A DNA stretch of 64,000 bases from a virus. The notes beneath the pieces are model-generated. The model searched no databases. It had not been told where the DNA came from and was given only the letters and a program-made list of their open reading frames with translations. The stretch lies in IMG/VR virus record IMGVR_UViG_3300030616_000017, positions 32,001 through 96,000 of that record. One strand, written 5' to 3'. The translations under genes were made by a program, and so were the position numbers. Positions 12,336-60,453 of this stretch are shown here, piece by piece (position 1 is the stretch's first letter; each line of letters opens with the position of its first letter).

Positions 12336-14264
12336 TCATTTTTTGTGACGAGACGTACCTACTACTTGATTTTTCCATTTTGCAGTTTGAGAAAAATGTT
12401 CAACCCCATACTTACTTAAATTATTCTTCTTACGTGTTTCTTTAACTTCTTTGTTTTGCATTACCCATTCTGTTCCGTATTTTTTAAGATTAGTTTGTTT
12501 TCTTTTTTCTAACACACTTCTCCACTCTTCTTTTGTATACTTAGCATGATGTTTTTTTATTTTTTCACTACTGAGTTTATTTTTACACTTTTTATCTCCG
12601 CAAGTGTCCCAATAGAACATACCTGAACCTGAAAATGCTTTTTCCTTTCCACAATAAGGGCATATAGTAGACTCATTTTGAGACTTCAAGTATTTATTGT
12701 AGTAATCTTTGCGATCAATCTCGGGGTGAGCTATTGACAAGTGTTTTTTAAGACCTTTGAGAGACTTCATATTACGTTTACAAATTTCGCAATATTCGTA
12801 CCCTTCTTTACGGGGTTCTTCATGGTGTTCTGGCTTATGAAAATAATCTATTTGCTTTTCATTATTTTTTATATTCTCTTCTACTACTCCCCATCCAAAC
12901 ACCATATTACCGCAATCCCATATACGATCAAATCCATTATTTTTCATATTTTCCCATTCAGATAATTCAGAATTAAAATCATTAATCAGTTTATGTAATT
13001 TATGTTTTTGATATTTAATTCTACTCTCTAGATTCATATAATCTTTTGTGTAAAAATAGTTTGGGGAACTGGTATTTATATATGTAAACCCATTAGTTCT
13101 ATACACTTTTCCTGTGCTGTATCTCTTATCAGCATAAGATAATATATTTTTAGGATGATAATTTTTAACAAAATGATTTAATAATTTACTAAATCCCCCC
13201 ACTATTTGTACACTATGCAAAGAAGCAAAACGATGTATCTCATATTCATAAGTATTGTACCTTGAATGACCTAGAGCAAGCACCTGAACCAATCTACTGT
13301 TTTGATCTCGCAGACCATAAAAAATAGTGCTTCCTAAATAGGATTGTTGTAAATGATTTTGTTTGAGAAAATCTTGCGCTTCCTTTTTGTTTACTTTCTC
13401 ACAAATAGTTTTACGGGCATATATTCTTTCATTAAAAATACCTAACTTGCTTAATACAAGACTTTTCACTATATCCCAATATTTTACCATCTCTACATCT
13501 AATATATGTATAACATCAATATTAAAGTAGTCCTTAAAAAAATTATTTTTTTGTATATGATAACTTCTAGGGGTATTTCCCCTTATCTCTGAGTGCCAAT
13601 ATACCCCATCTATTTCTATACCAATGTTTTTATCAGGTATGTATACATCAAGCTCTTTATTTTTACCTCCATCTATATAAAACCTCTTGTTTTTTTCATA
13701 TTTTATAGAATATTCATCAAGAAGATCGGTTATATAAAGTTCTATACCGGAAATACCTTTATACTCTTTAGGAAAACACTTAGGGCATAACGGTACCCTT
13801 CTTCCTACAGAATTACCAGTAAAAATAGTTCCGCAGTGTTTACATTTCCATTGATATTCATATCTAACTCCCTTCCACTCTGTATCTATATTAAATAGTG
13901 GTTCAGAGTGCTTATCTTGCTTCATCTCAGTTTTAATACGAGAAATACTTCTATAATAATTTTTACAAGAGGCGGAGCATAATGTAGGAAACTTTTTAGA
14001 GGTTTTATTCCATGTTACTTTTTTACCGCAATATACGCAAGTAGGATGTTTATGGAGTTCATTTTCTATGCAATATATGCGAGCATTGAAATCTATGTCT
14101 TCAGGAAGAAAATTAGTGGCTTGCTCTACTTCTCTTTTAATTTGATTAAAGAAAGGATATTTAACAGGGTCTCGATCCTCATTTAATTTATTTAAGGTTT
14201 GGGTATTTCCTTCTTTAAATAAATGTTGATACATTCTACTCTTTAAATCTTTAGTATAAACCAC
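12336..14264 (-). mobile_element. Free-standing Hef-like homing endonuclease gene (PD-(D/E)XK/Vsr-like domain plus zinc fingers)
   Basis: ELDVYIP...IGIEIDGVYWHS; RIYARK...IWDCG tail; several CxxC; KRKQTNLKKYG repeats; more AT-rich than the flanking genes. Confidence 0.8.
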
Positions 14265-28110: not shown

Positions 28111-28768
28111 ACGCTTCCTTATGTGATATTATCATATCTAGTTTTTCTAAAAAACGAGCATCACAACTTATATAATGTGTTTCAATTATTTCTTTTAAGA
28201 CTACAGCATTCCAATACCTCGAATGGGCTAAGTGGCCGTCTTTATGTGATTCATCTTCAAACGCTTTCATAGTTGGATGAATATACCCTTCCACATATCC
28301 ACTCCAATCTTTATTGTACACATTAGCCCGATTTATGTACATATCCATTCCAGTAAGAAAGAGGTGCTTAGGCTTTAATTTTGTTAAATAGTGGACAACA
28401 GCAACTCCTGAATACGTAAACCCTCTTTTCATTTTACTTTCCACTTCTTTGAAAGCTCGAGGAATAGCTGTATGAGGAATATCTGTATATTGCGGGTAAT
28501 TTCTTTTGAAAAGAAAATGTTTTACAAAAGGGTATTTTTTAAGGTCTGGTTTTAATTCTCTTACAAATGGATTAGTTAAAAAATGAAGTGTGTCTTTTTT
28601 TCCGTAATCTTTTTGATATTCTTTATCTTTTTGTATAAAGAGAGAGCCATTAAACTTCACCACAACATCATGTGAATCAATAAACTCTCCGAGGCGTTTC
28701 CCTTTAATAATATCACTGCTGCCAACAACAATAATTGATTTTCCTTCTACAATTTCCTTGCAATCCAT
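28103..28768 (-). CDS. GT29-like sialyltransferase
   Basis: IVVGSS...LGEFIDSHDVVVKFN...DYG.K; YSG; LTGMD; HS. Confidence 0.75.
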   Translation of the reverse strand: MDCKEIVEGKSIIVVGSSDIIKGKRLGEFIDSHDVVVKFNGSLFIQKDKEYQKDYGKKDTLHFLTNPFVRELKPDLKKYPFVKHFLFKRNYPQYTDIPHTAIPRAFKEVESKMKRGFTYSGVAVVHYLTKLKPKHLFLTGMDMYINRANVYNKDWSGYVEGYIHPTMKAFEDESHKDGHLAHSRYWNAVVLKEIIETHYISCDARFLEKLDMIISHKEAYE

Positions 28769-30039
28769 GATGTATCCTTAAAGGTTGCTTCAACCTTAAT
28801 GTTTCTATCTACAGCTTTTCGAACTCCGGGATGATGTTTACTTAAATAATCATGACCCCCTATAAAGCCGCCTCTCTTGACTTTCGGTAGCCACATTTTA
28901 ATATCCTGCTCTACGAATTCTTCTGCGTGATTACCATCAATATATACAAAGTCTAAACTCCCCTCTTTGAAATCTTTTACAGCTTCTTGAGATTTTGTTT
29001 TTATTTTAGTCACGTTAGGATATTGTGAAAGTACAAAGATATCAAATTGTTTTTCCACCTCAACCATATTATATTTAGACGGATCGGAGGCCCCGTCGTA
29101 ATTACTATAATTAGATTGCCAAGGGTCAACACAAGTTAAATGTTTAACTCTTTTAGCAAAAACTTCGGATGAATTTCCGGCAAAAGAACCAATTTCCACC
29201 ATAGTTACTTTTTCGATAGGTTTTACTCGGCTGATGTAATCACATAAATCTTCTAACCCCGAAATAGCATTTTTTGCTTTTCTTATACTAATTCTGTTCA
29301 TAATGTTCCACCATTTTTCTTCTAACTTAGCAAAATCTACCTTATCGCGGTAGTCTCTTCTTGTAATAGGATCTTGCCAAGGTTTAATAGCTACGTAATG
29401 TAGAATCTTAGCTTTATCAACTGTTTTCTTAAACTTATCACTTTTATACATTCTTTTTTCTACATTATACTCTTTAGGTAGAATTTGTGTTTTTTCTCTG
29501 AAATACTTATTTAAGCATTCTTGATCAGGCAACTTATATCCCTGTTTAATATCTTCGACTAATGCGTGATACGTTTTCTCATTTAACCATTGTTTGCCTA
29601 TAACAAATACTCCGCTATTGAAAGTACTAACAAGTCTATCACAAGCCTCTCTGTAGCTTCTCACAGCTAAAAACTCAGTATGATCTCTAAACAATAAACT
29701 TATTCTATCAAGCACTATCACATCTAAATCAATAAAAATAGCTTGTTGATACCCAAGCTTATACAAAGAAAAAATATCTAGCTTGTAATACGTATTGCGA
29801 AGATGAGGTACGGTTATTTCAAAATTAGTACCTTCATACATCTTATAATTCGGTTGAATAAATGTAAGCTTTGGATAGTATTGACGACAAAACTCTCTAT
29901 CTTTCTCTGTCATTCCTATTTCAAGAAGAACAAAATCAAGAGAAAAATCGGGATGCACTTGAAGCAGAGATTTAACAAATCCTACATAACCAGGAATAAA
30001 ATTCGGCGTAATTAGGGAGCATAAACACTTTTTTAACAT
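28747..30039 (-). CDS. GT8 glycosyltransferase fused to a Methyltransf_24-type methyltransferase
   Basis: FIDLD, FNSGVF, DQ..LN, HY...KPW; then EIGSFAGNS, DFVYIDGNH, GGHDY. Confidence 0.9.
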   Translation of the reverse strand: MLKKCLCSLITPNFIPGYVGFVKSLLQVHPDFSLDFVLLEIGMTEKDREFCRQYYPKLTFIQPNYKMYEGTNFEITVPHLRNTYYKLDIFSLYKLGYQQAIFIDLDVIVLDRISLLFRDHTEFLAVRSYREACDRLVSTFNSGVFVIGKQWLNEKTYHALVEDIKQGYKLPDQECLNKYFREKTQILPKEYNVEKRMYKSDKFKKTVDKAKILHYVAIKPWQDPITRRDYRDKVDFAKLEEKWWNIMNRISIRKAKNAISGLEDLCDYISRVKPIEKVTMVEIGSFAGNSSEVFAKRVKHLTCVDPWQSNYSNYDGASDPSKYNMVEVEKQFDIFVLSQYPNVTKIKTKSQEAVKDFKEGSLDFVYIDGNHAEEFVEQDIKMWLPKVKRGGFIGGHDYLSKHHPGVRKAVDRNIKVEATFKDTSWIARKL

Positions 30040-32036: not shown

Positions 32037-34814
32037 TTAAGCAGTTATTTCTCTCCCAAACCCCCATACTTCGCCCTTCCCGTACCAATCTGCCTCTTCT
32101 ACCTCTAGTACAAGAGGAACTCCGTTGTTTTCCGGGATGTTTTCCTCAAAAACTTGTTTGGCCAATTTTCTTAAATAGTGCTCATCTTTGTGGGTGTACA
32201 TAACAATAGAATCATGCACTGTTCCTACAACCCTGCTCTTCAAGTTCTTTTTTCTAATTTCATTTACTAAAGCTACAAGAGTGCGATTAATAATAATAAC
32301 TTCATAATTCTGTACAGGAGAATTCGCTGCTATATTTTTTAAGTTTTTAATATCGGCTTGCTCTCCGTGCTTCCCTTTGTACAGTAATTGAGGTAATCGT
32401 CTTATAGCCCCAAAAGCGGAGATAACATATCCGTTATCCTCTGCGAATTTTATTTCCTTTTCTATATTACTCTTTAATCCCGGATATGTTTCGAAGTGTT
32501 TTCTTTTTATATCGCTTGCTACTGCCCAATAATAAGCAAACTCCAAGGGTTCACTTTTATGTTCTTCGCTTAGCATTCTTTGAAGCATATCTACTTTCTT
32601 TTCTAAATTATTTTTCTCTATATAATCTTGACATTCCTTTAATGACCATTCTTTTTCTATACTTGATTTTGCAAAACTGAAGGCAGTGGCATTAAACAAA
32701 AGGGAAAAGTTAATCATTTTGGCCTTAAATCTGTCGTTTTTAATTTCTGAATCTCCTTCCTTTTTCAGGCGTAGAAATTCCTCTAACGTCAGGTCTCTCC
32801 TTAAAACTGATTGGGCTGTTACACTATGCAAATCCCCTCCGAATTCAGTAAAGGCTCTGTACATATTGAGGTCTTGACTATAAATAGTTGCAATTCTAAG
32901 CTGAAAACCTGCCCCATCCAACTCGTCTATTGAAAATTCCGGAGAAGGCGGCTTAAACATTTTTCTTACTTTTATAGCTTTCTCCCCGTGCTTAGGTATA
33001 TTCTGCAAATTAGGTTCGCGGCATTTGTTGCGATGTGAATCTGTAAGATTAACTCCGAATTTAGAATGAACTCTCCCGTCATTTTTGAGATATTTGTAAT
33101 AACCTTTTTTCTCACTTTTGCTTTTTGATGCAAATCCTTTAGAGGGGGCGTGGTCAAAAAAATCAAAATCGGTGCTGCTGTTTTTGTTTTCTTCATCCTC
33201 GCCTATAAAAGTTTTGAAGAGAGTTTTTAATTCTCTGTACTTGAGAAGCTCATCGATACCTTTTTCCCAACCCCTTCTCTTCCACGCCAACAACTGATCT
33301 TCTCCTGTGAGATAAATATTCCCTACCTTAACGTCCTCTTTTATTTTTAATAAGGTCTTAATTCTTTCTACCGTATTAACGTTTGCTCCCTTTTTACCCC
33401 TTTCTATGAAGGGATACCCTTTTAACTCTAGAAGAATACCTAATTCAGAATCACTATTAAAATTAATAGAGTTTGGAGGAACTCCGAAGGCTTTTTCTAC
33501 ATTTTCCAAAGCTATTTTTATTTCTTTTACCATTGAGAGAGAATTGTGATCTAAAGTAGGTTTGTCAACACAAAAACCTTCCAATTCAATATCTATAAAA
33601 GCGTTTACCGCAGGCATAGTTTCATTATAGAAATAATTTGCTTGGGTTTTGTTGGTGTGCTTGGCGGCTATTGCGGTTACTTTCTTAAAGTGATTTACCT
33701 GGTACTTATATACCAAATAAGTAACAATAGCGTCCATTGTTGCATAAGGCTTTAACACCTCCTTTGGTATTTTGGAATAATCCCTTTTGAATTCAGGGTG
33801 TTTGTCTAGGTAATCATCTAAGTCTCTATCATACCCTCCGTAGGGGGTAAACAACCAGGCAGAAGTTTTAAGACCATTTCTTTGAAGCTCGTTTAGCTGA
33901 TGGGAGGCATGCATAGTATCATGATAAATATAAATACTATTTCTTTCTACGCCGTGTTTAATAACAAACTTAGCATCAAACTTGCCGTTTTGCAGAATCT
34001 GTTTTTTAGGTTTCAAAAATTCTGAAAGAAGGCTTTTATCTATTTTGTCCCAGGGGAGATAATATCCTGTTTTCCCATCAAAGGAGCAGGTAAAACATAT
34101 TATTTTTCCTTCGGGATCAAAAGCATCCAATGTGTTTGTCTCAATATCCCACGCAACGTCTCCCTCGTACTCTTTCCATTCTTGTAAAAATTCGTTGGGG
34201 TTTTCGGGCTCGACAATAGCTGGTTTAGGTATTCTCCTAAGAGGCTCAGCCAGCGTAGCGGCCTGTTTGCATTGATATTGAAAAAAGTAATGATCCCAAC
34301 TATCTTTAGGGATTTTACCGTGATTCATCCATATACCTTCGAATCTCACAGGAAATACATAAGATTTTATATCTGGAGAATAAAAATATGACTTGTTAAA
34401 AACAACATCGTAAAATCCCTGATAGTTTACATCATCGCTTTGCATCAATCCGTATAATACTCTCTGGTTCGCTACTATTTTAGCTCCCGGGCGTATATAC
34501 TGAGATAAATCTATAGTATTTTTCTTATAAAACTTCTTAATAGTGTTTTTAAGGTCTTTATCTTCTCTCGCCCTGAACGGAATAACACATAATACATTTA
34601 TATTTACAGGCCGGCCAAACAAAGGTCCAATAGCGGCTTTAGCCTCTTTTACCAATCTGTCTACGTAATAGGTTTCATATACATTATCTTGCAAAAGCCA
34701 TATATCAGGCTGAACACCTCTCTTTCCTTCATAAAGAAGGACATCATGCAAGATATCCTTCCTTCGCTTTACATCTATGTTTCTTGGAACTGCATTCGTA
34801 AAAAAAGAACTCAT
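32037..34814 (-). CDS. polA: Family A DNA polymerase with 3'-5' exonuclease
   Basis: Exo DIET, QNGKFD, YA.MD; PNLQNIP; motif A DGAGFQLR; motif B R.KAK.INF; motif C VHDS. Confidence 0.95.
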   Translation of the reverse strand: MSSFFTNAVPRNIDVKRRKDILHDVLLYEGKRGVQPDIWLLQDNVYETYYVDRLVKEAKAAIGPLFGRPVNINVLCVIPFRAREDKDLKNTIKKFYKKNTIDLSQYIRPGAKIVANQRVLYGLMQSDDVNYQGFYDVVFNKSYFYSPDIKSYVFPVRFEGIWMNHGKIPKDSWDHYFFQYQCKQAATLAEPLRRIPKPAIVEPENPNEFLQEWKEYEGDVAWDIETNTLDAFDPEGKIICFTCSFDGKTGYYLPWDKIDKSLLSEFLKPKKQILQNGKFDAKFVIKHGVERNSIYIYHDTMHASHQLNELQRNGLKTSAWLFTPYGGYDRDLDDYLDKHPEFKRDYSKIPKEVLKPYATMDAIVTYLVYKYQVNHFKKVTAIAAKHTNKTQANYFYNETMPAVNAFIDIELEGFCVDKPTLDHNSLSMVKEIKIALENVEKAFGVPPNSINFNSDSELGILLELKGYPFIERGKKGANVNTVERIKTLLKIKEDVKVGNIYLTGEDQLLAWKRRGWEKGIDELLKYRELKTLFKTFIGEDEENKNSSTDFDFFDHAPSKGFASKSKSEKKGYYKYLKNDGRVHSKFGVNLTDSHRNKCREPNLQNIPKHGEKAIKVRKMFKPPSPEFSIDELDGAGFQLRIATIYSQDLNMYRAFTEFGGDLHSVTAQSVLRRDLTLEEFLRLKKEGDSEIKNDRFKAKMINFSLLFNATAFSFAKSSIEKEWSLKECQDYIEKNNLEKKVDMLQRMLSEEHKSEPLEFAYYWAVASDIKRKHFETYPGLKSNIEKEIKFAEDNGYVISAFGAIRRLPQLLYKGKHGEQADIKNLKNIAANSPVQNYEVIIINRTLVALVNEIRKKNLKSRVVGTVHDSIVMYTHKDEHYLRKLAKQVFEENIPENNGVPLVLEVEEADWYGKGEVWGFGREITA

Positions 34815-34823
34815 TTAATCTCC

Positions 34824-35531
34824 TTAAATATTTTTAGTGTAAAAATCTACAGCTCTCTCCCAACTTTCGTCTGAAAGATATAGAGGATCTCGAAGATTAT
34901 TTTCTAGAAACGCTTCCGTTCTTTCTACGCAAGACCCGCATTTTCCGCAAGGCTCCTCTCCCCCTTTGTAACAGGTCCATGTTTTAGAGTAATCGACTCC
35001 GAGCTTGATTCCTCTTTCCAAAATAGAAATCTTATTCAAATGAACAAAGGGAGCTGACATCGTTGCTTCTTCATATGTTCCATACTTAATAGCTTGCGCC
35101 ATTGCTTGTTCAAACTCAGGACGACAATCGGGATAGATAGCATGGTCCCCCGCATGGGCCCCATATAGAATATAATTACATTTTTCTGCTTCTGCAATTG
35201 CGGCTAGAATAGAAAGGATAATTCCATTTCTAAAAGGCACAACTGTTGACTTCATATTTTCGTCTGCATAATTCCCCTCCGGAATAGCCTCCGCTCCTTG
35301 TACAAGGGAGGAGGTTTTAGCAGCGATCTCTCCCAAAAACGAAATATCAATTAAACGATGAGGAATGTTATTCGTTTTGCAATGCTCTGCTGCAAGCTCT
35401 ATTTCTTTGGAATGATTCTGTCCATAATAAAACGAGACAGCTTCGAGCTCAAAGCCTTCGTTAAGTGCATGATACAACAAAGTAGTAGAATCCATTCCCC
35501 CTGAAAGGGCAATAACTGCTTTTCTTTTCAC
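34824..35531 (-). CDS. queC: 7-cyano-7-deazaguanine synthase
   Basis: SGGMDS, YGQ.H, VPFRN, YPDCR, TWTCY, CGKCGSC.ER. Confidence 0.97.
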   Translation of the reverse strand: MKRKAVIALSGGMDSTTLLYHALNEGFELEAVSFYYGQNHSKEIELAAEHCKTNNIPHRLIDISFLGEIAAKTSSLVQGAEAIPEGNYADENMKSTVVPFRNGIILSILAAIAEAEKCNYILYGAHAGDHAIYPDCRPEFEQAMAQAIKYGTYEEATMSAPFVHLNKISILERGIKLGVDYSKTWTCYKGGEEPCGKCGSCVERTEAFLENNLRDPLYLSDESWERAVDFYTKNI

Positions 35532-36067
35532 TTCAAATCTCCTTTAATAAAATTAATAATATGATGGGCTTTTATAAGGGGAGGGCCAGGTAACTGCACG
35601 GCACGCAATTCGTAGTTTTCTATATAAGTTAAAAAGAGATTATGAGTTTCTTCCCTGAACTCTTTATTGACACTTCTTACTCCATCTTCAATAACAGCTA
35701 TTTCAGGAGGAAGATAAAAAAACACGTCATATTTATCATAAGTTTTTTCAAAAATGTTCAAAAAATACAAAAAATAGGATTCAGGAATCATTTTATGATA
35801 ATATGAGTACGTGGTATATACCATTGCATCCAATACCGATCTATCTGTAATAATATTACCTTTTATTATATTAGATAAATGCTCTAAAAAAACAAAAGCC
35901 TGAGTACAAGATGTCCCCTCTTCATTGATAGCTACGCCCATATTTTTTAAGGTGCGCACTATTTCGGTCTTAAATTCAAAATTATCTTTAAGATAATTAT
36001 CTTCGCGAAGTAAAGCCATTGTTTCTGTTTTGCCAGTACACTGAACACCCGATAAGCTAATAAGCAT
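35528..36067 (-). CDS. P-loop nucleoside/nucleotide monophosphate kinase (AAA_28/NadR-like)
   Basis: SG.QCTGKT, DRS.LD, EDGVRS. Confidence 0.75.
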   Translation of the reverse strand: MLISLSGVQCTGKTETMALLREDNYLKDNFEFKTEIVRTLKNMGVAINEEGTSCTQAFVFLEHLSNIIKGNIITDRSVLDAMVYTTYSYYHKMIPESYFLYFLNIFEKTYDKYDVFFYLPPEIAVIEDGVRSVNKEFREETHNLFLTYIENYELRAVQLPGPPLIKAHHIINFIKGDLK

Positions 36068-36925
36068 TTATTTCTCCTTTTTTTGCTTTAAAAATAATTC
36101 CCTGTCAATTATTGCTTTTTCCAACGATAAATATTTTTCATCTTTTATTAGCTGTTTGAAAAAGCGTATATTATATATAATATCCGAAGTTTGATCAAAA
36201 GTCAATTCAGCAAGTAAATTATCTGCTAATTTTCCTTCAGGCTTCGTCTCAAGCCCCTTATCCCCAGAGTATCTCACGTTATTGATACCTGCCATTATGG
36301 GGCTGCTGGTATCTATAGTTTCTATGAAAGAAGAATCTCTATAAAAAGAAAATTCATAAGGAAGAGCGCAGCCCAACAGATGATGCGGTTTCTTTTTATT
36401 TAGGATTTTCTTAGTAGATAACTGATAAACAAATCTTTGACGGGCTTTTACCAATTTTTCATCTTTGGAGAAATTGTCGCCGAATTGTTCCAAATAACAA
36501 GGAAGGCCAAAAGTTATAGCAATTTTATCCGCGTGTTCACTCATAAATCTATAGCATTCAAATAACTCAGTCCAAGTGCTTCCTTGCACCACGCCTATAG
36601 CTTTGCCTGGTAAATTAGGATATTTCTTTGTAAAATCTTTAAACTGGTTTATGGTAAGATTTTTATCTCCCCAAGCATCGGGAACAATATATTCTGTAGG
36701 TTTTAGTTTCTTAATCCAATAAGCAAAACGGTCCGCTTCGAAACTTTCTCCTAATTCAAAAAGACTATTATCTAATATAACTCGCCTACCCTCTAAAAGA
36801 GAGTCCTCAAAAAAAGAATAATAAGAAGGGTGTTCTTCAAAAAGATGAACGAGGGCATAGTCATAATCATTGAATATTTTGCTAATGTCTAATAGTTCTA
36901 AAGGAACTTCGTGTGCTACTTCCAT
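36068..36925 (-). CDS. TGT-fold transglycosylase (DpdA-like)
   Basis: ILDNS.FE.G, PD, IGVVQG, HHLLG, DTSSP match TIM-barrel TGT motifs; lies within the que cluster. Confidence 0.7.
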   Translation of the reverse strand: MEVAHEVPLELLDISKIFNDYDYALVHLFEEHPSYYSFFEDSLLEGRRVILDNSLFELGESFEADRFAYWIKKLKPTEYIVPDAWGDKNLTINQFKDFTKKYPNLPGKAIGVVQGSTWTELFECYRFMSEHADKIAITFGLPCYLEQFGDNFSKDEKLVKARQRFVYQLSTKKILNKKKPHHLLGCALPYEFSFYRDSSFIETIDTSSPIMAGINNVRYSGDKGLETKPEGKLADNLLAELTFDQTSDIIYNIRFFKQLIKDEKYLSLEKAIIDRELFLKQKKEK

Positions 36926-36934
36926 GTACTCTCC

Positions 36935-37420
36935 CTAAAAGAAAAATGTATGCGTATTAGCTATATATCTTGCCCTTTCTCTCAAAGAAAAAAATTCCTC
37001 TCTATATCTGTTGCTGTTTTTATAAGATCCTAAATACGATAAAAGATTTTCCATAAACTCGTTTTGTTTTTGATGTATATAGCCTTTTTTAAGCCATCTT
37101 TTATTTCTTGCGTGTAAATCTACAAACGTTTTATAAACATCTTCTATGTTGTAGTCTCCTATGGAAGAGTCTTCTACTTCAAAAGAAAAAGAAGGTTGCG
37201 CTTCGACCGAAGCCAAAAACGCATAAGCTTTACGTTTATCTTCTCCTTTAAGAGAGATAGCGCAACCTTTGATGTAATTAACGATTATATCTTTATAATC
37301 GTGATTGAACCTGCCTTCAGCAAACCTTCCTATTCTTACTTCCTTTTCTTCCCAAGAAAGCCCCTTCAAAGAAGCTCTGAAAACCTGCCAATCCATTCTG
37401 TACTTGTCTACCTTGCTCAT
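36935..37420 (-). CDS. Hypothetical protein inside the deazaguanine cluster
   Basis: 161-aa ORF tightly packed between yhhQ and the TGT-like gene. Confidence 0.6.
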   Translation of the reverse strand: MSKVDKYRMDWQVFRASLKGLSWEEKEVRIGRFAEGRFNHDYKDIIVNYIKGCAISLKGEDKRKAYAFLASVEAQPSFSFEVEDSSIGDYNIEDVYKTFVDLHARNKRWLKKGYIHQKQNEFMENLLSYLGSYKNSNRYREEFFSLRERARYIANTHTFFF

Positions 37421-37442
37421 AGTAGATATTGTACCCTATTAT

Positions 37443-38069
37443 TTAAGAAGTTTCAAGTGCCGTGCCCTCAAATTCCCCTGTTTTTCCTTTAGTAAACAAG
37501 TAAAAGAACGGGGTATCTACTGCAGCAATTATTAGCTTGAGTACGTACTGGGAAATAATCATCCACCACAGATCAGGAACGATGCCCGCAAAAGCTATAG
37601 TAATAAAAATAGAAGTATCAATAAGCTGACTAGTCATAGTGCTTGCATTATTTCTTAGCCATTTATGTTTTCCCTTGGTAAAAGATCCTAACTTATGGAA
37701 AAACCATACGTCCCACGACTGGGATAAATAATAAGCAATCATCGAAGCCATTACCAGTCGGAAATTCATTCCCAGCAAGACCTTATAAGCATCGGCCTGT
37801 GCCTGAGCAAAGGGCGGAGAAGGCATAAGCTGAGTCAAATAAATCATACCAGCCGCGAACAGCGAACAAATAAAACCCGTCTGTACAAGCTTTATCGCTT
37901 CCTTTTTTCCCCACAACTCTGAGGTGAGATCCGTCATTAGAAAGGTAATGGCATAAAGAAGAAAGGCTCCCGGAACAATAAATCCAAAGATATTAAGTAC
38001 CTTCCCCGCCACCACATTTGAAACTACCAGAGCAGCAATAAACAAACTCTGAATAAGCAGCTTTTTCAT
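37443..38069 (-). CDS. yhhQ: Queuosine precursor transporter (YhhQ/VUT family)
   Basis: SNV.A.K, TD..SE..G, R...AS..AY..SQ..DV, W.RNN.ST..SQ.IDT. Confidence 0.92.
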   Translation of the reverse strand: MKKLLIQSLFIAALVVSNVVAGKVLNIFGFIVPGAFLLYAITFLMTDLTSELWGKKEAIKLVQTGFICSLFAAGMIYLTQLMPSPPFAQAQADAYKVLLGMNFRLVMASMIAYYLSQSWDVWFFHKLGSFTKGKHKWLRNNASTMTSQLIDTSIFITIAFAGIVPDLWWMIISQYVLKLIIAAVDTPFFYLFTKGKTGEFEGTALETS

Positions 38070-38077
38070 TAGTCCTC

Positions 38078-38569
38078 CTATTTATAATCTTTATGGCCCT
38101 GCCATTGGCCATTGTATAAGTTTTCTTCTTTTACTTCCTCTTTATTTTCAACCATATAAATCTGCGCAACTCTCGCATGCCTTTCAATCACTAACTCACT
38201 AAAGGGAAGAAGAAGAATAGCTCCACAATATTCTGTCTCGAAACCTGCGTCGTATACGCCGCTAGTAATCAAACCTCCTGCCCTGGCCACACTACTTCTA
38301 TGTCGTATAAAAGCGGTAGCCCACGCAGGAACTTTAATACCCTGATCAAATGTTAAAGCGTAAACCCCAGGAGTAAGACGGTATTGAGATCTTGCTTTAA
38401 CTTGAAAAACAGGTTCATAGTCGTTGATAATAGTCTCATCCCGGTTTACAACCCCTCCTTTAATACGATTAACGTATTTAAGAGTTAGGTCGTAGCCTAT
38501 TTGAGTTTTCTTACCTTCCACGTCGTGAATGCGAAGGTAAGAAAACAGTTCATCTGCTGATAATATCAT
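38078..38569 (-). CDS. Trimeric dUTPase/dCTP deaminase family protein
   Basis: GYDLTL, RSS.AR.G, DAGF, R.AQ, Y.GQ.QG. Confidence 0.8.
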   Translation of the reverse strand: MILSADELFSYLRIHDVEGKKTQIGYDLTLKYVNRIKGGVVNRDETIINDYEPVFQVKARSQYRLTPGVYALTFDQGIKVPAWATAFIRHRSSVARAGGLITSGVYDAGFETEYCGAILLLPFSELVIERHARVAQIYMVENKEEVKEENLYNGQWQGHKDYK

Positions 38570-39190
38570 TTACTTTCCCTGTTTAATAAGGTGGAAAAAT
38601 TCTTCCCTTACTTCTGGCTTAGAGCGAAATACTCCTCTCAAATCAGAGGTTCGCATGCTTGAATTCTCGCTCTCTTCTACACCCCTCATCACCATACACA
38701 TATGGGTGGCCTCAATAAAAACAGCTACGCCGAGAGGATCAAGAGTTTCCTGCACAAAATCCGCTATCTGCTTTGTTAACTCCTCTTGGATTTGGGGTCT
38801 ACGCATAAACCATTTAGTAATGCGTACCAGCTTACTAATTCCTACCACTTTGTCACCCGGAATATAAGCTACATAAGCGTTCCCCAGGAAAGGCATCCAA
38901 TGATGAGAACACATACTCTTAATCTGAATAGGTCCAAGCACAACCATTTCATCGTATTCTTTTGTATTAGGAAAAACAGTAATCTTAGGTTGCTCATCAT
39001 AATTCCCAGAAAAGACCTCATTAACATACATTTTAGCTATGCGGTGAGGCGACTCCTCAAGCTGAGGATCGTTTCGGTTGAAATGAAGAAGATCAAAAAT
39101 CTCTTCAAACTTTTCTTCTACTTTAGAAATCATATCATCCTTCTCTTCGCGGGTGAGGACAACATTGTCATTACTAACAATAGGTGACAT
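38570..39190 (-). CDS. folE: GTP cyclohydrolase I
   Basis: [38 protein letters not shown]. Confidence 0.97.
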
Positions 39191-39530
39191 TAAATAACTC
39201 CTTTTTATTTTTAATATTTTCTCTACAATAAGGACAACGCTTGTTTAGTTCTTTCAAACTGTTTTCGCTGTCTACTGATCCTGCTTCATACAGAAGGCTG
39301 TATTCATCGTCTTTTATAGGACTTTTATGGTTGTAGCCTCTCTTCAACATTTCCTCTACTAGGGCGTCATGTCTTTTAATTACATTATGAACTTCTACAA
39401 GACCGTTAGTAATATAACCCCTTAAAGAAATTCCTTTTCTTAGAGACCCCAGTAAAGTATGCATTTCCCTGTGCTCCCCCAGTAAATGTGATCTGCACAT
39501 TATAGAAGGGTCCACATTCCACATTCTCAT
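39174..39530 (-). CDS. Pyrimidine-dimer DNA glycosylase (DenV-like)
   Basis: [26 protein letters not shown]; start moved to MRMW. Confidence 0.8.
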
Positions 39531-39531
39531 T

Positions 39532-40218
39532 TTATACTCCTTGAATATTACCAAAAATTATAATATGACTTCTTAGAGAAAGGTTCCAGCCTCTCTCTAT
39601 AAGAATATCATAATATTTTTTCACAATACCTAAAATAGTTTTTGCATCTACTCCTTTGGGTTGAATGTAGATTCTTTCAGAAGGTATAGAATGATTCTTT
39701 TGTTCTTCTATAATATAACCTAAATCTTCATCATTTTCTAGTAAAAACTTAACTATTTTATTTGAGTAGCCTATATCGAGAAGGTAGGGGTAAGTAGCTT
39801 TCTGCAAGCCGGCGCTGTCTTGAGCTACGTTAGTTTTGGGGGAAATGTTAAGCTTAACATTATACTTTTTAAACAAAGACAACACCATTTCATTAGGTAC
39901 CAATGTCCCGTTTGTTTCAATTTCAAATGAAATCTTATCTCCATAGTCCACCAAAAAATCTACAATAAAGCCCTCATGCTTAGGAAGAAGTGGTTCTCCC
40001 CCTGTTATAACTACATTAGAGGTTTTCTTGATCATCTCCCCCACTGTTTCTGCATTATAGGCAATCCCATTATCTGTCCATGTAAACTTAGAATCACAAA
40101 AAGAACATCTAAGATTGCACCCGGGAAATCGAATAAAAAGGGAGTGTTTACCTTGTGTATCTCCTTCTCCCTGAAACCCATAGAAAGGCTCTTCTGCGAG
40201 ATAAATTAATTCTTTCAT
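39532..40218 (-). CDS. queE: 7-carboxy-7-deazaguanine synthase (radical SAM)
   Basis: QGEG, FIRF.GCNLRCSFCD, ITGGEP, IETNG, SPK. Confidence 0.95.
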   Translation of the reverse strand: MKELIYLAEEPFYGFQGEGDTQGKHSLFIRFPGCNLRCSFCDSKFTWTDNGIAYNAETVGEMIKKTSNVVITGGEPLLPKHEGFIVDFLVDYGDKISFEIETNGTLVPNEMVLSLFKKYNVKLNISPKTNVAQDSAGLQKATYPYLLDIGYSNKIVKFLLENDEDLGYIIEEQKNHSIPSERIYIQPKGVDAKTILGIVKKYYDILIERGWNLSLRSHIIIFGNIQGV

Positions 40219-40589
40219 TAGTCCCAATCTCCGCATTCACACCATGTCTGCTTCCCCACGGCTGTCTCATACACCCTTACCTTAAATTCTAGGCTAGGAT
40301 TAGAAAGCTTAACTTCGTCGTAAAACCGTTGGCAGAGATTTTCTGCTGTAGGGTTAATATTGTCGAATGGAGCGATGTCGTTAATAAATTGGTGATCGTA
40401 CATTTCCTTCAATCGTTTGACATTCCCAAAATCCCAAAGAATCCCTACTTCATCTACTTGAGAAGACTCTCCTCTAACCCACACTTCTACGAACCAAGTG
40501 TGCCCATGAATCCTGCTACAGTTGCCATCATATCCTCTGAGCTGATGAGAACTGTCTATAGTTGTCTCTGTATGCAATGTAAGTATCAC
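40218..40589 (-). CDS. queD: 6-carboxy-5,6,7,8-tetrahydropterin synthase
   Basis: SSH.L, C.RIHGH, DF, DH..IN, PTAEN, V.ET. Confidence 0.95.
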   Translation of the reverse strand: MILTLHTETTIDSSHQLRGYDGNCSRIHGHTWFVEVWVRGESSQVDEVGILWDFGNVKRLKEMYDHQFINDIAPFDNINPTAENLCQRFYDEVKLSNPSLEFKVRVYETAVGKQTWCECGDWD

Positions 40590-40600
40590 TCTTTCTCCTC

Positions 40601-41176
40601 CTATATATTATATATTAATAACTCTTTTTGTGCGTTTTGTAAATCTAAAAGCCACTCATCCCATAAATTAGAGCCTTCACCTCCGTTTCTTACGATGTAA
40701 GAGGGGTGGTAAGTAGGCATAATTAAAAAGCCTAGTTCCTCAAAAGTCTGCCCATGCACTTTAGTAATTTTCGGTGGAATGGTTACAAAAGCATTACAAG
40801 GGTTGTTTCCTAAAGGAATAAGCATTTTATACCCTCTGCCTTTTAGATATTCTAATTCTTCATATAGCCCTTCGTTGCAGTGTTTTTTAAGAGCTATCTT
40901 TGTATTAGTTTCTGTAAACTTATTATCTTTTGGTCTGCAGTTTATTACGTTAGTTAGCCAATAGTAGTGACTTGTTATCCCCACCTCTCTAAGGGCTTTT
41001 CTTAGAAGCTTTCCAGCTGCCCCTATAAAAGGTTCTTTGTTCTCATCTTCCATTTTTCCAGGGGCCTCTCCTATGAAAACAAAATCGCCCCTTTCACTAC
41101 CCCTTCCCCAAACTCTATTTCTATAGGCAAGGGGGCATCCCTCGCATTTTACTTGTTGTCTTTCATATATAAGCAT
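40601..41176 (-). CDS. Uracil-DNA glycosylase family 4 (Fe-S)
   Basis: C..C, GEAPG..ED, PF.G.AG, N...CRP, PTYHPS. Confidence 0.92.
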   Translation of the reverse strand: MLIYERQQVKCEGCPLAYRNRVWGRGSERGDFVFIGEAPGKMEDENKEPFIGAAGKLLRKALREVGITSHYYWLTNVINCRPKDNKFTETNTKIALKKHCNEGLYEELEYLKGRGYKMLIPLGNNPCNAFVTIPPKITKVHGQTFEELGFLIMPTYHPSYIVRNGGEGSNLWDEWLLDLQNAQKELLIYNI

Positions 41177-55775: not shown

Positions 55776-56162
55776 ATGGATTGGAGTGAATATCAGGAAG
55801 GTACAACAGCAACAGCCATGTTTAAGAATTCTGTAAAGGATATTATTCTTTTTGATAGAGAGGAAGGACAGAGCAATCAGAGAGTATTGAATTCCTTAGA
55901 GTTAAGTTACATAGGCCTAGGTTTAGGAGAAGTAGGAGAAATTCAGAATAAGCTTAAAAAGATTATTCGTGATGATAAAGGGATTATTAGAGAAGAGGTC
56001 CGCAAGGATTTGTTAAAAGAAGCAGGAGACGCTCTTTATTATCTTACACAATTAGTTGATAAGCTTGGAGGAACATTAGAAGAAACAGCTCAGGATAATC
56101 ATGATAAACTTTTTTCACGAATGGATAGAGGGGTTATTCAGGGTTCTGGTGATAATAGATAA
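55776..56162 (+). CDS. MazG-like NTP pyrophosphohydrolase
   Basis: GE.GE...K.KK, E.GD.LYY, N..KL..R..RG.I.GSGDNR. Confidence 0.88.
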   Translation: MDWSEYQEGTTATAMFKNSVKDIILFDREEGQSNQRVLNSLELSYIGLGLGEVGEIQNKLKKIIRDDKGIIREEVRKDLLKEAGDALYYLTQLVDKLGGTLEETAQDNHDKLFSRMDRGVIQGSGDNR

Positions 56163-59978: not shown

Positions 59979-59991
59979 AAATAAAAAATAT

Positions 59992-60081
59992 GGGCAAGTG
60001 GCGAAGCTGGTTGAAACGCATGAGACTTAAAATCTCATACCCAAGCGGTAAACATCGTGGGTTCGATCCCCACCTTGCCTA
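59992..60081 (+). tRNA. tRNA-Leu(UAA)
   Basis: Cloverleaf, TGAGA-CTTAAAA-TCTCA anticodon arm, long variable arm. Confidence 0.93.
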
Positions 60082-60085
60082 ATAT

Positions 60086-60159
60086 GGCACCTTAGCTCAG
60101 CTGGATAGAGCATGAGATTTCTAATCTCAGGGTCACAGGTTCGAATCCTGTAGGTGTCA
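60086..60159 (+). tRNA. tRNA-Arg(UCU)
   Basis: TGAGA-TTTCTAA-TCTCA; GTTCGAATC T-loop. Confidence 0.93.
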
Positions 60160-60171
60160 TACTAATATAAA
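60160..60171 (+). promoter_or_regulatory. Putative late promoter TACTAATATAAA inside the tRNA cluster
   Basis: One-mismatch motif 5 bp before tRNA-Lys. Confidence 0.55.
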
Positions 60172-60175
60172 AAAT

Positions 60176-60248
60176 GGACCGTTAGCTCAGTCGGTAGAGC
60201 AACGCACTTTTAATGCGTAGGTCACAGGATCGTAGCCTGTACGGTTCA
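60176..60248 (+). tRNA. tRNA-Lys(UUU)
   Basis: ACGCA-CTTTTAA-TGCGT; atypical T-loop ATCGTAG. Confidence 0.9.
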
Positions 60249-60252
60249 CTAA

Positions 60253-60324
60253 GGTTTATTCGTATATTGGTTAGTACGCTGGATTGTCGATCCAGAAGGC
60301 GGGGTTCGATTCCCCGATAGACCG
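60253..60324 (+). tRNA. tRNA-Asp(GUC)
   Basis: CTGGA-TTGTCGA-TCCAG; discriminator G. Confidence 0.88.
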
Positions 60325-60325
60325 T

Positions 60326-60361
60326 TTTTGTAAGAAATCTATATAGTTTTTTCTTACAAAA
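60326..60361 (+). repeat. Inverted repeat TTTTGTAAGAAA/TTTCTTACAAAA between tRNA-Asp and tRNA-Glu
   Basis: Perfect 12-bp stem. Confidence 0.6.
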
Positions 60362-60368
60362 TCTCTTT

Positions 60369-60442
60369 GCTCCCTTCGTCTAATCGGTTAGGATATCGCC
60401 CTTTCAAGGCGAAGATATCGGGTTCAAGTCCCGTAGGGAGTA
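60369..60442 (+). tRNA. tRNA-Glu(UUC)
   Basis: TCGCC-CTTTCAA-GGCGA anticodon arm; GTTCAAG T-loop. Confidence 0.9.
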
Positions 60443-60453
60443 AAACATTTTAC

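Follow-up and report, generated by a model that had tools for sequence, protein, structure and literature searches.

Introduction

Phages that carry the transglycosylase DpdA3 are the only ones that replace every guanine (G) of their DNA with a 7-deazaguanine, and the enzyme has never been reconstituted. The family was founded on gp056 of Campylobacter phage CP220, the homologue from Flavobacterium phage immuto_2-6A (immuto) and gp042 of Cellulophaga phage phiST (PMC10516641; Cui, Hutinet et al. 2023). In that study, which defined DpdA3, a kinase is not mentioned, and in the literature searched we found no published account of kinase coupling or of a pre-replicative DpdA3 mechanism. Here we analyse a stretch of 64,000 nucleotides (the window; bases 32001-96000 of the 147,158-bp IMG/VR virus record IMGVR_UViG_3300030616_000017), in which a dpdA3 gene shares a tightly packed operon with genes for the synthesis of 7-deazaguanine, a P-loop kinase and a DNA polymerase. 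The cluster is very probably a DpdA3-type DNA 7-deazaguanine system, and the kinase gene is translationally coupled to dpdA3 and has been conserved alongside it. A route in which the unusual base is installed before replication is plausible, with a chance that we put at even or slightly lower.

The record is rated as a complete virus genome by CheckV. The same DNA is present in marine-sediment metagenomes, and no RNA is listed among the sequencing runs that contain it. Assemblies of such metagenomes are the sole source of this uncultured phage.

Results

A DpdA3-family transglycosylase

Two adjacent genes are central to the analysis:

36068..36925, minus strand: DpdA3-family 7-deazaguanine transglycosylase, 285 aa (homology to DpdA3 proteins and a tRNA-guanine transglycosylase (TGT) fold)
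35528..36067, minus strand: P-loop nucleoside/nucleotide kinase (AAA_28; PF13521, E 1.5e-10)

The product of the first gene had been called TGT-like in a preliminary description of this DNA, and the call is borne out by its fold and by its DpdA3 homologues, not by Pfam. As found with tblastn, the protein is 52% identical to CP220 gp056 (E 2e-60), 43% identical to the annotated DpdA of immuto_2-6A (immuto_65; E 4e-56) and 23% identical to phiST gp042 (CGPG_00065; E 1e-6). It matches phrog_19058 (E 2e-64), the same PHROG as the DpdA3 founders, and its relatives in metagenomes number more than 3,000. No Pfam match was obtained at E <= 0.01, NCBIfam and PADLOC were blank too, and in the PDB both sequence and profile searches returned only chance matches; the identification as a TGT-fold enzyme comes from the fold and the phage homologues.

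An AlphaFold (AF2) model built from 29 homologues had a predicted local distance difference test (pLDDT) score of 93. Its best Foldseek matches were all tRNA-guanine transglycosylases and the DNA preQ0 (7-cyano-7-deazaguanine) insertase DpdA, with E ~1e-8. VIA-align superposed the model on ArcTGT, bacterial TGT and DpdA 7ui4 with Z of 17.1-17.6 over ~230 residues (ArcTGT: Z 17.6, root mean square deviation (rmsd) 3.2, 235 aligned; 7ui4: Z 17.1, rmsd 3.5, 234 aligned). Three aspartates, D52, D83 and D205, are invariant in the 29 homologues, and their spacing of 31 and 122 residues compares with 35 and 126 for D95/D130/D256 of bacterial DpdA (PMC10164549). The alignment by hhalign sets D205 on the nucleophile aspartate (FDCV motif) of E. 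coli Tgt, albeit weakly (3.9% probability, E 0.011).

The protein has cysteines only at positions 124, 143 and 186 and no CxCxxC zinc motif, which in E. coli Tgt is found at residue 302; the Zn subdomain and the C-terminal parts of tRNA-acting TGTs are both missing. A PF01702 (Tgt) match was found nowhere in the genome, whereas all 14 control genomes gave one. We thus rejected membership in Tgt, as there is neither a PF01702 match nor a CxCxxC...H subdomain.

Some metagenomic relatives of DpdA3 are natural fusions. In the set of proteins P0124, P0125, P0149, P0166, P0246 and P0155, the partners are a bimodular QueF (531 aa), a DpdN-like formyltransferase (447 aa, twice) and DUF3310. The set also includes one DpdA3 into which an intein carrying a LAGLIDADG endonuclease is inserted, and one whose C-terminal extension contains a NUMOD3 (homing-endonuclease-type) motif. 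We also noted that a DpdA3-like gene is present in Bacillus phages BSTP12, BSTP8, BSTP10 and BSP7, where GenBank labels it 'NadR trifunctional protein', 'polynucleotide kinase' or 'hypothetical'. In BSTP12 (locus L004, 5896-6684) it lies between a Gat-QueC, QueD, QueE, FolE set and DNA polymerase I. These four are probably unrecognised DpdA3-type phages.

The kinase gene is coupled to dpdA3

The stop codon of dpdA3 abuts the start codon of the kinase gene (TAAATG), with a GGAG a few bases 5′ of the kinase ATG, and the kinase gene in turn overlaps queC by 4 nt (GTGA). We tested the linkage both ways, collecting 80 viral-contig loci from DpdA3 and 80 loci, 72 of them new, from a profile of the kinase (152 distinct loci). 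When the search was started from DpdA3, 77 of the 80 loci carried a homologue of the window kinase, which mostly started a few bases past the dpdA3 stop. Both genes were present in 142 of the 152 loci, on the same strand in all of them, with dpdA3 preceding the kinase gene in 141; the gap between the two was 60 nt or less in 94 of the 142. Many of the 152 loci are close relatives, and we hence recounted by DpdA3 clusters. The kinase was within 1 kb of dpdA3 in 20 of the 25 clusters formed at 70% identity, and in 11 of the 13 formed at 60% identity. The kinase-only loci (8 of 152) had neighbours with no Pfam match, and in three of them the kinase gene was less than 1 kb from the end of the locus.

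In CP220, a homologous kinase (gp057) is encoded directly 3′ of dpdA3, and in immuto the homologue follows dpdA3 past two open reading frames (ORFs), one of them for the formyltransferase DpdN. In phiST, the P-loop kinase-like gp041, encoded immediately 5′ of dpdA3, is of another family (AAA_18) and its match to the kinase profile is not significant. BSTP12 has a P-loop protein directly 5′ of its dpdA3-like gene, with a weak match to the profile. As controls we used phage 9g and 17 related DpdA1 loci; the kinase profile matched nothing in any of them, and short P-loop ORFs were not seen near dpdA in the DpdA1 control loci.

Most metagenomic DpdA3 loci belong to marine T4-like phages (Gp23, prohead protease). 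A compact trio of dpdA3, kinase and bimodular queF, with no FolE, QueC, QueD or QueE within 8 kb, was present in 64 of the 80 loci L005-L084, and 22 of these 80 have an added formyltransferase. The marine T4-like trio phages may rely on preQ0 that is made by the host or imported. As the trio loci have none of the synthesis genes within 8 kb, dpdA3 is, in the loci examined, tied more tightly to the kinase gene than to the biosynthetic ones.

The partner is related to small-molecule kinases

The kinase is 34% identical to CP220 gp057 and equally so to immuto_68. Its profile matches thymidylate kinase (TMPK) over the full length (E 2e-6), with a DR motif aligned to the DRF of Aquifex TMPK, and the ribosylnicotinamide kinase (RNK) domain of NadR (E 2.4e-6). 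Across 20 homologues, residues G7, G12, K13, R38, Q56, D75, R76 and R131 do not vary, the invariant features being the Walker A P-loop, the DR motif shared with TMPK and the lid arginine. The model of the kinase (pLDDT 92) is closest to NadR RNK (Z 16.7, rmsd 2.6, 166 aligned), followed by human deoxyguanosine kinase (Z 15.7), deoxynucleoside kinase (dNK) and deoxycytidine kinase (Z ~15; 15.3) and TMPK (Z 14.4-14.6). The nearest structures are all small-molecule nucleoside or nucleotide kinases, with no DNA-binding ATPase among those listed.

PHROG and GenBank label the homologues as thymidylate kinase. The family of TMPK proper, PF02223, was not matched at threshold by the window kinase, for which AAA_28 (PF13521) alone was reported; for the immuto homologue the PF02223 match had E 0.004 and 17 bits, under the cut-off of 27. 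As judged from sequence and model, the protein belongs to the small-molecule nucleoside/nucleotide kinase superfamily (dNK/NadR-RNK/TMPK), and since PF02223 is not matched at threshold its acceptor could be either a nucleoside or a nucleoside monophosphate (NMP).

Layout of the operon

On the minus strand, between 40589 and 32037, eleven ORFs lie close together, the gaps between them being -23 to +22 nt. In order of transcription they encode QueD, QueE, a DenV-like glycosylase, FolE, a dUTPase-like protein, YhhQ, a 161-aa protein, DpdA3, the kinase, QueC and PolA, so that the operon compresses the way from GTP to the polymerase into 8.5 kb. In addition to the two genes given above, the features are:

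40218..40589, minus strand: QueD, 6-carboxytetrahydropterin synthase (TIGR03367 E 5e-25, slightly below cut-off)
39532..40236, minus strand: QueE, radical-SAM 7-carboxy-7-deazaguanine synthase (PF04055 E 1e-13; phrog_2076 'QueE-like' E 1e-38)
39174..39554, minus strand: pyrimidine-dimer DNA glycosylase-like protein (Pyr_excise, DenV/endonuclease V type; PF03013 E 6e-16)
38570..39190, minus strand: FolE, GTP cyclohydrolase I (PF01227 E 2e-59; NF006824 above cut-off)
38078..38569, minus strand: gene of the trimeric dUTPase/dCTP-deaminase family (PF22769 E 5e-8; PRK02253 E 6e-22, below cut-off)
37443..38069, minus strand: YhhQ/Vut_1 queuosine-precursor (preQ0/preQ1) transporter (PF02592 E 1e-51; TIGR00697 above cut-off)
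36935..37420, minus strand: 161-aa protein with no family match (Pfam, PHROGs, NCBIfam and PADLOC all blank)
34824..35531, minus strand: QueC, 7-cyano-7-deazaguanine synthase, without a Gat domain (PF06508 E 2e-64; TIGR00364 191 bits, cut-off 150)
32037..34814, minus strand: family-A DNA polymerase, 925 aa, with a 3′-5′ exonuclease domain (PF00476 E 2e-38; PF01612 E 5e-9; phrog_17 E 3e-86)
55776..56162, plus strand, outside the operon: MazG-like NTP pyrophosphatase, adjoining the ribonucleotide reductase gene (phrog_229 E 4e-28; weak PF03819 match)

The preliminary description had listed nine of the operon genes (queD, queE, folE, yhhQ, an ORF with no assignment, the TGT-like gene, the kinase gene, queC and polA), and all nine were recovered where it had placed them, in the right order and on the minus strand. 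It had also taken them as one continuous run. They are indeed packed, but two further genes had been missed, that of the glycosylase (39174-39554), between queE and folE, and the dUTPase-like one (38078-38569), between folE and yhhQ.

Downstream of polA, past a small ORF, is a strong terminator-like hairpin (31668-31644). The genes 5′ of the cluster code for a UDG (uracil-DNA glycosylase)-superfamily protein, a helicase and exonucleases, and therefore the cluster belongs to the replication module.

Supply of the base

The preQ0 gene set is complete, with FolE, QueD, QueE and QueC encoded in the same operon as DpdA3. These four enzymes would convert GTP to preQ0, or halt at its amide, ADG. YhhQ may import the free base as well; such an importer fits a TGT-type enzyme, because an enzyme of this type uses the free base. 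That the window has no queF and no archaeosine synthase gene had been noted before, and this extends to the whole 147-kb record, in which the single weak QueF match is FolE itself and an ArcS-type match is found nowhere. QueA, QueG, an HD protein and a phosphoribosyltransferase (PRTase) were likewise not found in the genome, nor were DpdL, DpdN or a Gat domain in the cluster. We rejected a route to the ribonucleotide through phosphoribosyl pyrophosphate and a PRTase, as the genome has no PRTase.

The gene set is that of CP220. With QueF, DpdL, DpdN and an amidotransferase all absent, we predict that the DNA carries dPreQ0 or dADG. Both are predicted because CP220 DNA carries the amide dADG despite a QueC homologue (PMC10516641), and the genes do not decide between the two. 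By analogy with all three DpdA3 phages analysed, essentially all deoxyguanosine (dG) should be replaced in this phage.

Neighbouring genes

The MazG-like protein is only remotely similar to phiST gp039. Hydrolases of dNTPs or NTPs are encoded beside dpdA3 in other phages, of the MazG type in phiST and immuto and of the HD type in CP220. It is possible that the MazG-like enzyme clears dGTP and supplies dGMP. As a candidate for a dedicated dGTPase, the dUTPase-like gene was rejected, since no counterpart was found in other DpdA3 phages; we treat it as a housekeeping gene or one of unassigned specificity.

The DenV-like glycosylase had no homologue in 84 DpdA3 loci and is probably a repair enzyme outside the pathway. 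The UDG-superfamily gene (40601-41176, minus strand; PF03167 E 3e-24) is directly 5′ of queD and does not recur in other DpdA3 loci. For the 161-aa ORF, the Atlas model was poor (pLDDT 0.59) with no usable structural neighbour; a lone tblastn match, of 24% identity, adjoins the kinase gene in locus L053.

About 2 kb downstream of polA, a 430-aa ORF (28747-30039, minus strand) encodes a family-8 glycosyltransferase (PF01501, E 2e-20) fused to Methyltransf_24 (PF13578, E 6e-19); PHROGs labels the ORF 'DNA methyltransferase'. The structural-gene region contains a 642-aa HNH/homing-endonuclease-like ORF (12336-14264, minus strand; phrog_3339 E 5e-97). Five tRNA genes, for Leu-TAA, Arg-TCT, Lys-TTT, Asp-GTC and Glu-TTC, are found at 59991-60443 on the plus strand; the set fits the AT-rich codon usage expected at 36% GC, and only tRNA-Asp is of the queuosine family. 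At about 48100 there is a divergent strand switch, with minus-strand genes below ~48.0 kb and plus-strand genes above, and the GC and AT skews flip sign at this point, which may be a replication origin or a module boundary.

Discussion

The mechanism we favour is pre-replicative. DpdA3 would swap guanine for 7-deazaguanine on free deoxyguanosine or dGMP, and not in finished DNA. The coupled kinase would then phosphorylate the unusual product, which host kinases may refuse, and host enzymes would finish the modified triphosphate. A phage NTP pyrophosphatase would hold dGTP low, while PolA would polymerise the modified dNTP. We estimate that the explanation as a whole, that is, a DpdA3 cluster in a replication operon working by this mechanism, has very nearly an even chance of being correct. 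More tentatively, and at somewhat less than even chances, we propose that DpdA3 is the first enzyme of the TGT superfamily to act on a free deoxynucleoside or deoxynucleotide, and that together with the kinase and a dGTP-clearing hydrolase it makes up a pre-replicative pathway for dPreQ0, dADG, dDG and fdPreQ1 genomes.

That the base might be attached at the nucleotide level, phosphorylated and polymerised had been suggested in the preliminary description from the position of the kinase gene between the transglycosylase gene and queC/polA. The part of that argument which holds is the kinase: it is conserved with DpdA3, coupled to it and absent from the DpdA1 controls, and therefore a route at the level of the nucleoside or nucleotide is a serious hypothesis, the route itself being inferred. 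The proximity of polA is uninformative, since 9g shares it. Indeed, we rejected the lack of a Zn motif, an acidic isoelectric point and adjacency to a polymerase as signs of a non-DNA substrate, because all three are shared by the DNA-acting DpdA1 of 9g.

The published data include several observations in favour of a pre-replicative route. In DpdA3 phages 100% of dG is replaced, versus <=30% for the DNA-acting DpdA1, DpdA2, DpdA4 and bDpdA (PMC10516641). Attempts to obtain DNA modification by DpdA3 in E. coli failed, and the free dADG nucleoside was detected in CP220-infected cells (PMC10516641). For Campylobacter phages, use of a modified dGTP by the polymerase had been put forward ahead of the discovery of DpdA3 (PMC6884629), and was later set aside (PMC10516641). 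To these points we add, from the present analysis, the coupling of the kinase gene to dpdA3, the placing of the kinase among small-molecule kinases, the complete preQ0 gene set, the dNTP or NTP hydrolases encoded beside dpdA3 in phiST, immuto and CP220, and the MazG-like gene of this phage.

A number of observations weigh against the pre-replicative route. To our knowledge, all TGT-superfamily enzymes characterised so far work on polynucleotides (tRNA or DNA), and no member is known that uses a nucleoside or nucleotide. We found no fusion of DpdA3 to the kinase: the search for longer proteins with DpdA3 as the query gave only DpdA3-QueF and intein-bearing DpdA3, the long entries among the 150 best DpdA3 representatives were formyltransferase, DUF3310 and homing-endonuclease fusions with no kinase, and none of the 152 loci had a single open frame with both proteins. 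The same search with the kinase as the query found nothing, which is weak evidence. The MazG-like gene is ~16 kb away from the cluster and its family (phrog_229) is not associated with DNA modification, and the dUTPase-like gene was not found in other DpdA3 phages. The linkage of dpdA3 and kinase could also reflect another partnership, for example with an ATP-using accessory protein like DpdB.

The last point leads to the post-replicative explanation, in which DpdA3, as a DNA transglycosylase of unusual efficiency, would exchange G in new phage DNA for preQ0 or ADG, and the P-loop protein would be either an ATP-dependent helper, analogous to DpdB, or a general dNMP/nucleoside kinase feeding replication. 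Post-replicative insertion is what Cui et al. concluded in the only DpdA3 paper (PMC10516641). It is consistent with the TGT/DpdA fold, including the Z of 17.1 to the DNA preQ0 insertase 7ui4, with the three invariant aspartates, spaced nearly as in bacterial DpdA, and with the ATPase partner that bacterial DpdA requires (PMC10164549); moreover, the DpdA1 of 9g, which acts on DNA, likewise has no Zn motif and is likewise encoded beside a polymerase. However, full, sequence-independent replacement of G in both strands would be unprecedented among DNA transglycosylases, which are motif-bound (PMC10516641), and the failure to obtain DNA modification by DpdA3 in E. coli counts against it too. The closest structures of the partner are nucleoside and NMP kinases, with the DR motif kept, unlike ParB-like or DNA-binding ATPases, and a generic dNMP kinase is not expected to be fixed to dpdA3 across Campylobacter, Flavobacterium and marine T4-like phages. 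On balance we regard the post-replicative explanation as credible but rather doubtful.

It has also been considered that the phage raises preQ0 for host or phage tRNA, the TGT-fold enzyme modifying tRNA and not DNA. The phage does encode a tRNA-Asp(GTC) (60253-60324), which is a tRNA of the Q family, and YhhQ and the preQ0 genes are part of the queuosine pathway as well. Nevertheless, the closest homologues of the enzyme (52 and 43% identity) come from phages with fully modified DNA (PMC10516641), which makes this use, offered earlier as an alternative through tRNA-Asp, unlikely. The genome has no QueF, QueA, QueG or PF01702 Tgt to support it, the enzyme is short of the subdomain and C-terminal parts found in tRNA-acting TGTs, and its gene is inside a DNA replication operon. 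We therefore consider a role in tRNA modification very improbable.

If the monomer-level route is true, it would be a further natural pathway of complete pre-replicative substitution, beside those for hydroxymethylcytosine (hmC), hydroxymethyluracil and 2-aminoadenine, and it would overturn the published view that all 7-deazaguanine modification of DNA is post-replicative. DpdA3, the kinase and a polymerase would then also be a kit of two or three enzymes for making 7-deaza-dGTP analogues and fully substituted, restriction-resistant DNA. If insertion is post-replicative after all, the cluster is an ordinary added DpdA3 system, in which the role of the kinase still wants explanation. With the whole candidate pathway in 8.5 kb, the operon lends itself to expression and assay.

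Comparison with known systems

CP220 (Firehammervirus; dADG, with FolE, QueD, QueE, QueC and gp056) has the closest DpdA3, a kinase directly downstream, a QueC homologue (41% identity) and no QueF, as here, and 100% of its dG is replaced (PMC10516641). It differs in being a T4-like myovirus with scattered synthesis genes, queD being ~9 kb from dpdA3, in having an HD + AAA_33 protein encoded 5′ of dpdA3, and in showing no YhhQ near dpdA3, whereas in the window all the genes are in one operon ending in a family-A polymerase. Immuto, in which G replacement is complete, has a DpdA3 43% identical and a kinase 34% identical to those of the window, and a similar gene order: queD, queE, folE, NTPase, dpdA3, kinase and then PolA. 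The polymerases of the two have no similarity detectable by tblastn. Immuto also has genes for QueF, for the formyltransferase DpdN and for an NTPase of the MazG type, and a small gene with a PRTase domain. None of these is in the cluster of the window, where YhhQ, the dUTPase-like gene and the DenV-like glycosylase are found instead. PhiST (dDG; FolE, QueD, QueE, MazG-like, DpdL, gp041 and gp042) is like the window in the P-loop kinase-like gene beside dpdA3, and has a polymerase downstream of dpdA3 and 100% replacement. It is unlike it in the absence of QueC, in the DpdL decarboxylase, in a polymerase of the Pol III alpha type and in the family of its P-loop protein (AAA_18).

The DpdA1 systems of 9g and other Queuovirinae and the bacterial DpdA/DpdB/DpdC systems share the precursor pathway with the window, and also a transglycosylase of the TGT fold, in which conserved aspartates are probably catalytic; 9g has dpdA beside a polymerase. 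In contrast, DpdA1 and bacterial DpdA act on DNA, are motif-specific and replace <=30% of G (about a quarter in 9g). Bacterial DpdA also has a 128-residue insertion, Ins8, and requires the ParB-like ATPase DpdB (PMC10164549). No coupled kinase was seen in 17 loci of DpdA1 systems, and the DpdA3 profile detects no sequence similarity to the DpdA of 9g/Queuovirinae or of the bacterial systems.

The hmC system of phage T4 consists of gp42, the dNMP kinase gp1 and the dCTPase gp56. Z-genome phages have PurZ, MazZ and DatZ (PMC8342488, PMC12783734). Both resemble our proposal for the window in that an enzyme installs the base at the monomer level, a kinase and/or dNTP hydrolase is dedicated to the pathway, and replacement is complete. 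The installing enzymes are, however, non-homologous, and the likeness is one of possible working mode, not of membership.

We conclude that the region belongs to the known DpdA3 systems, nearest to CP220 in enzyme sequence and gene content and nearest to immuto in operon layout. Its own features are the single operon leading from GTP to the polymerase, the YhhQ importer and the absence of tailoring enzymes.

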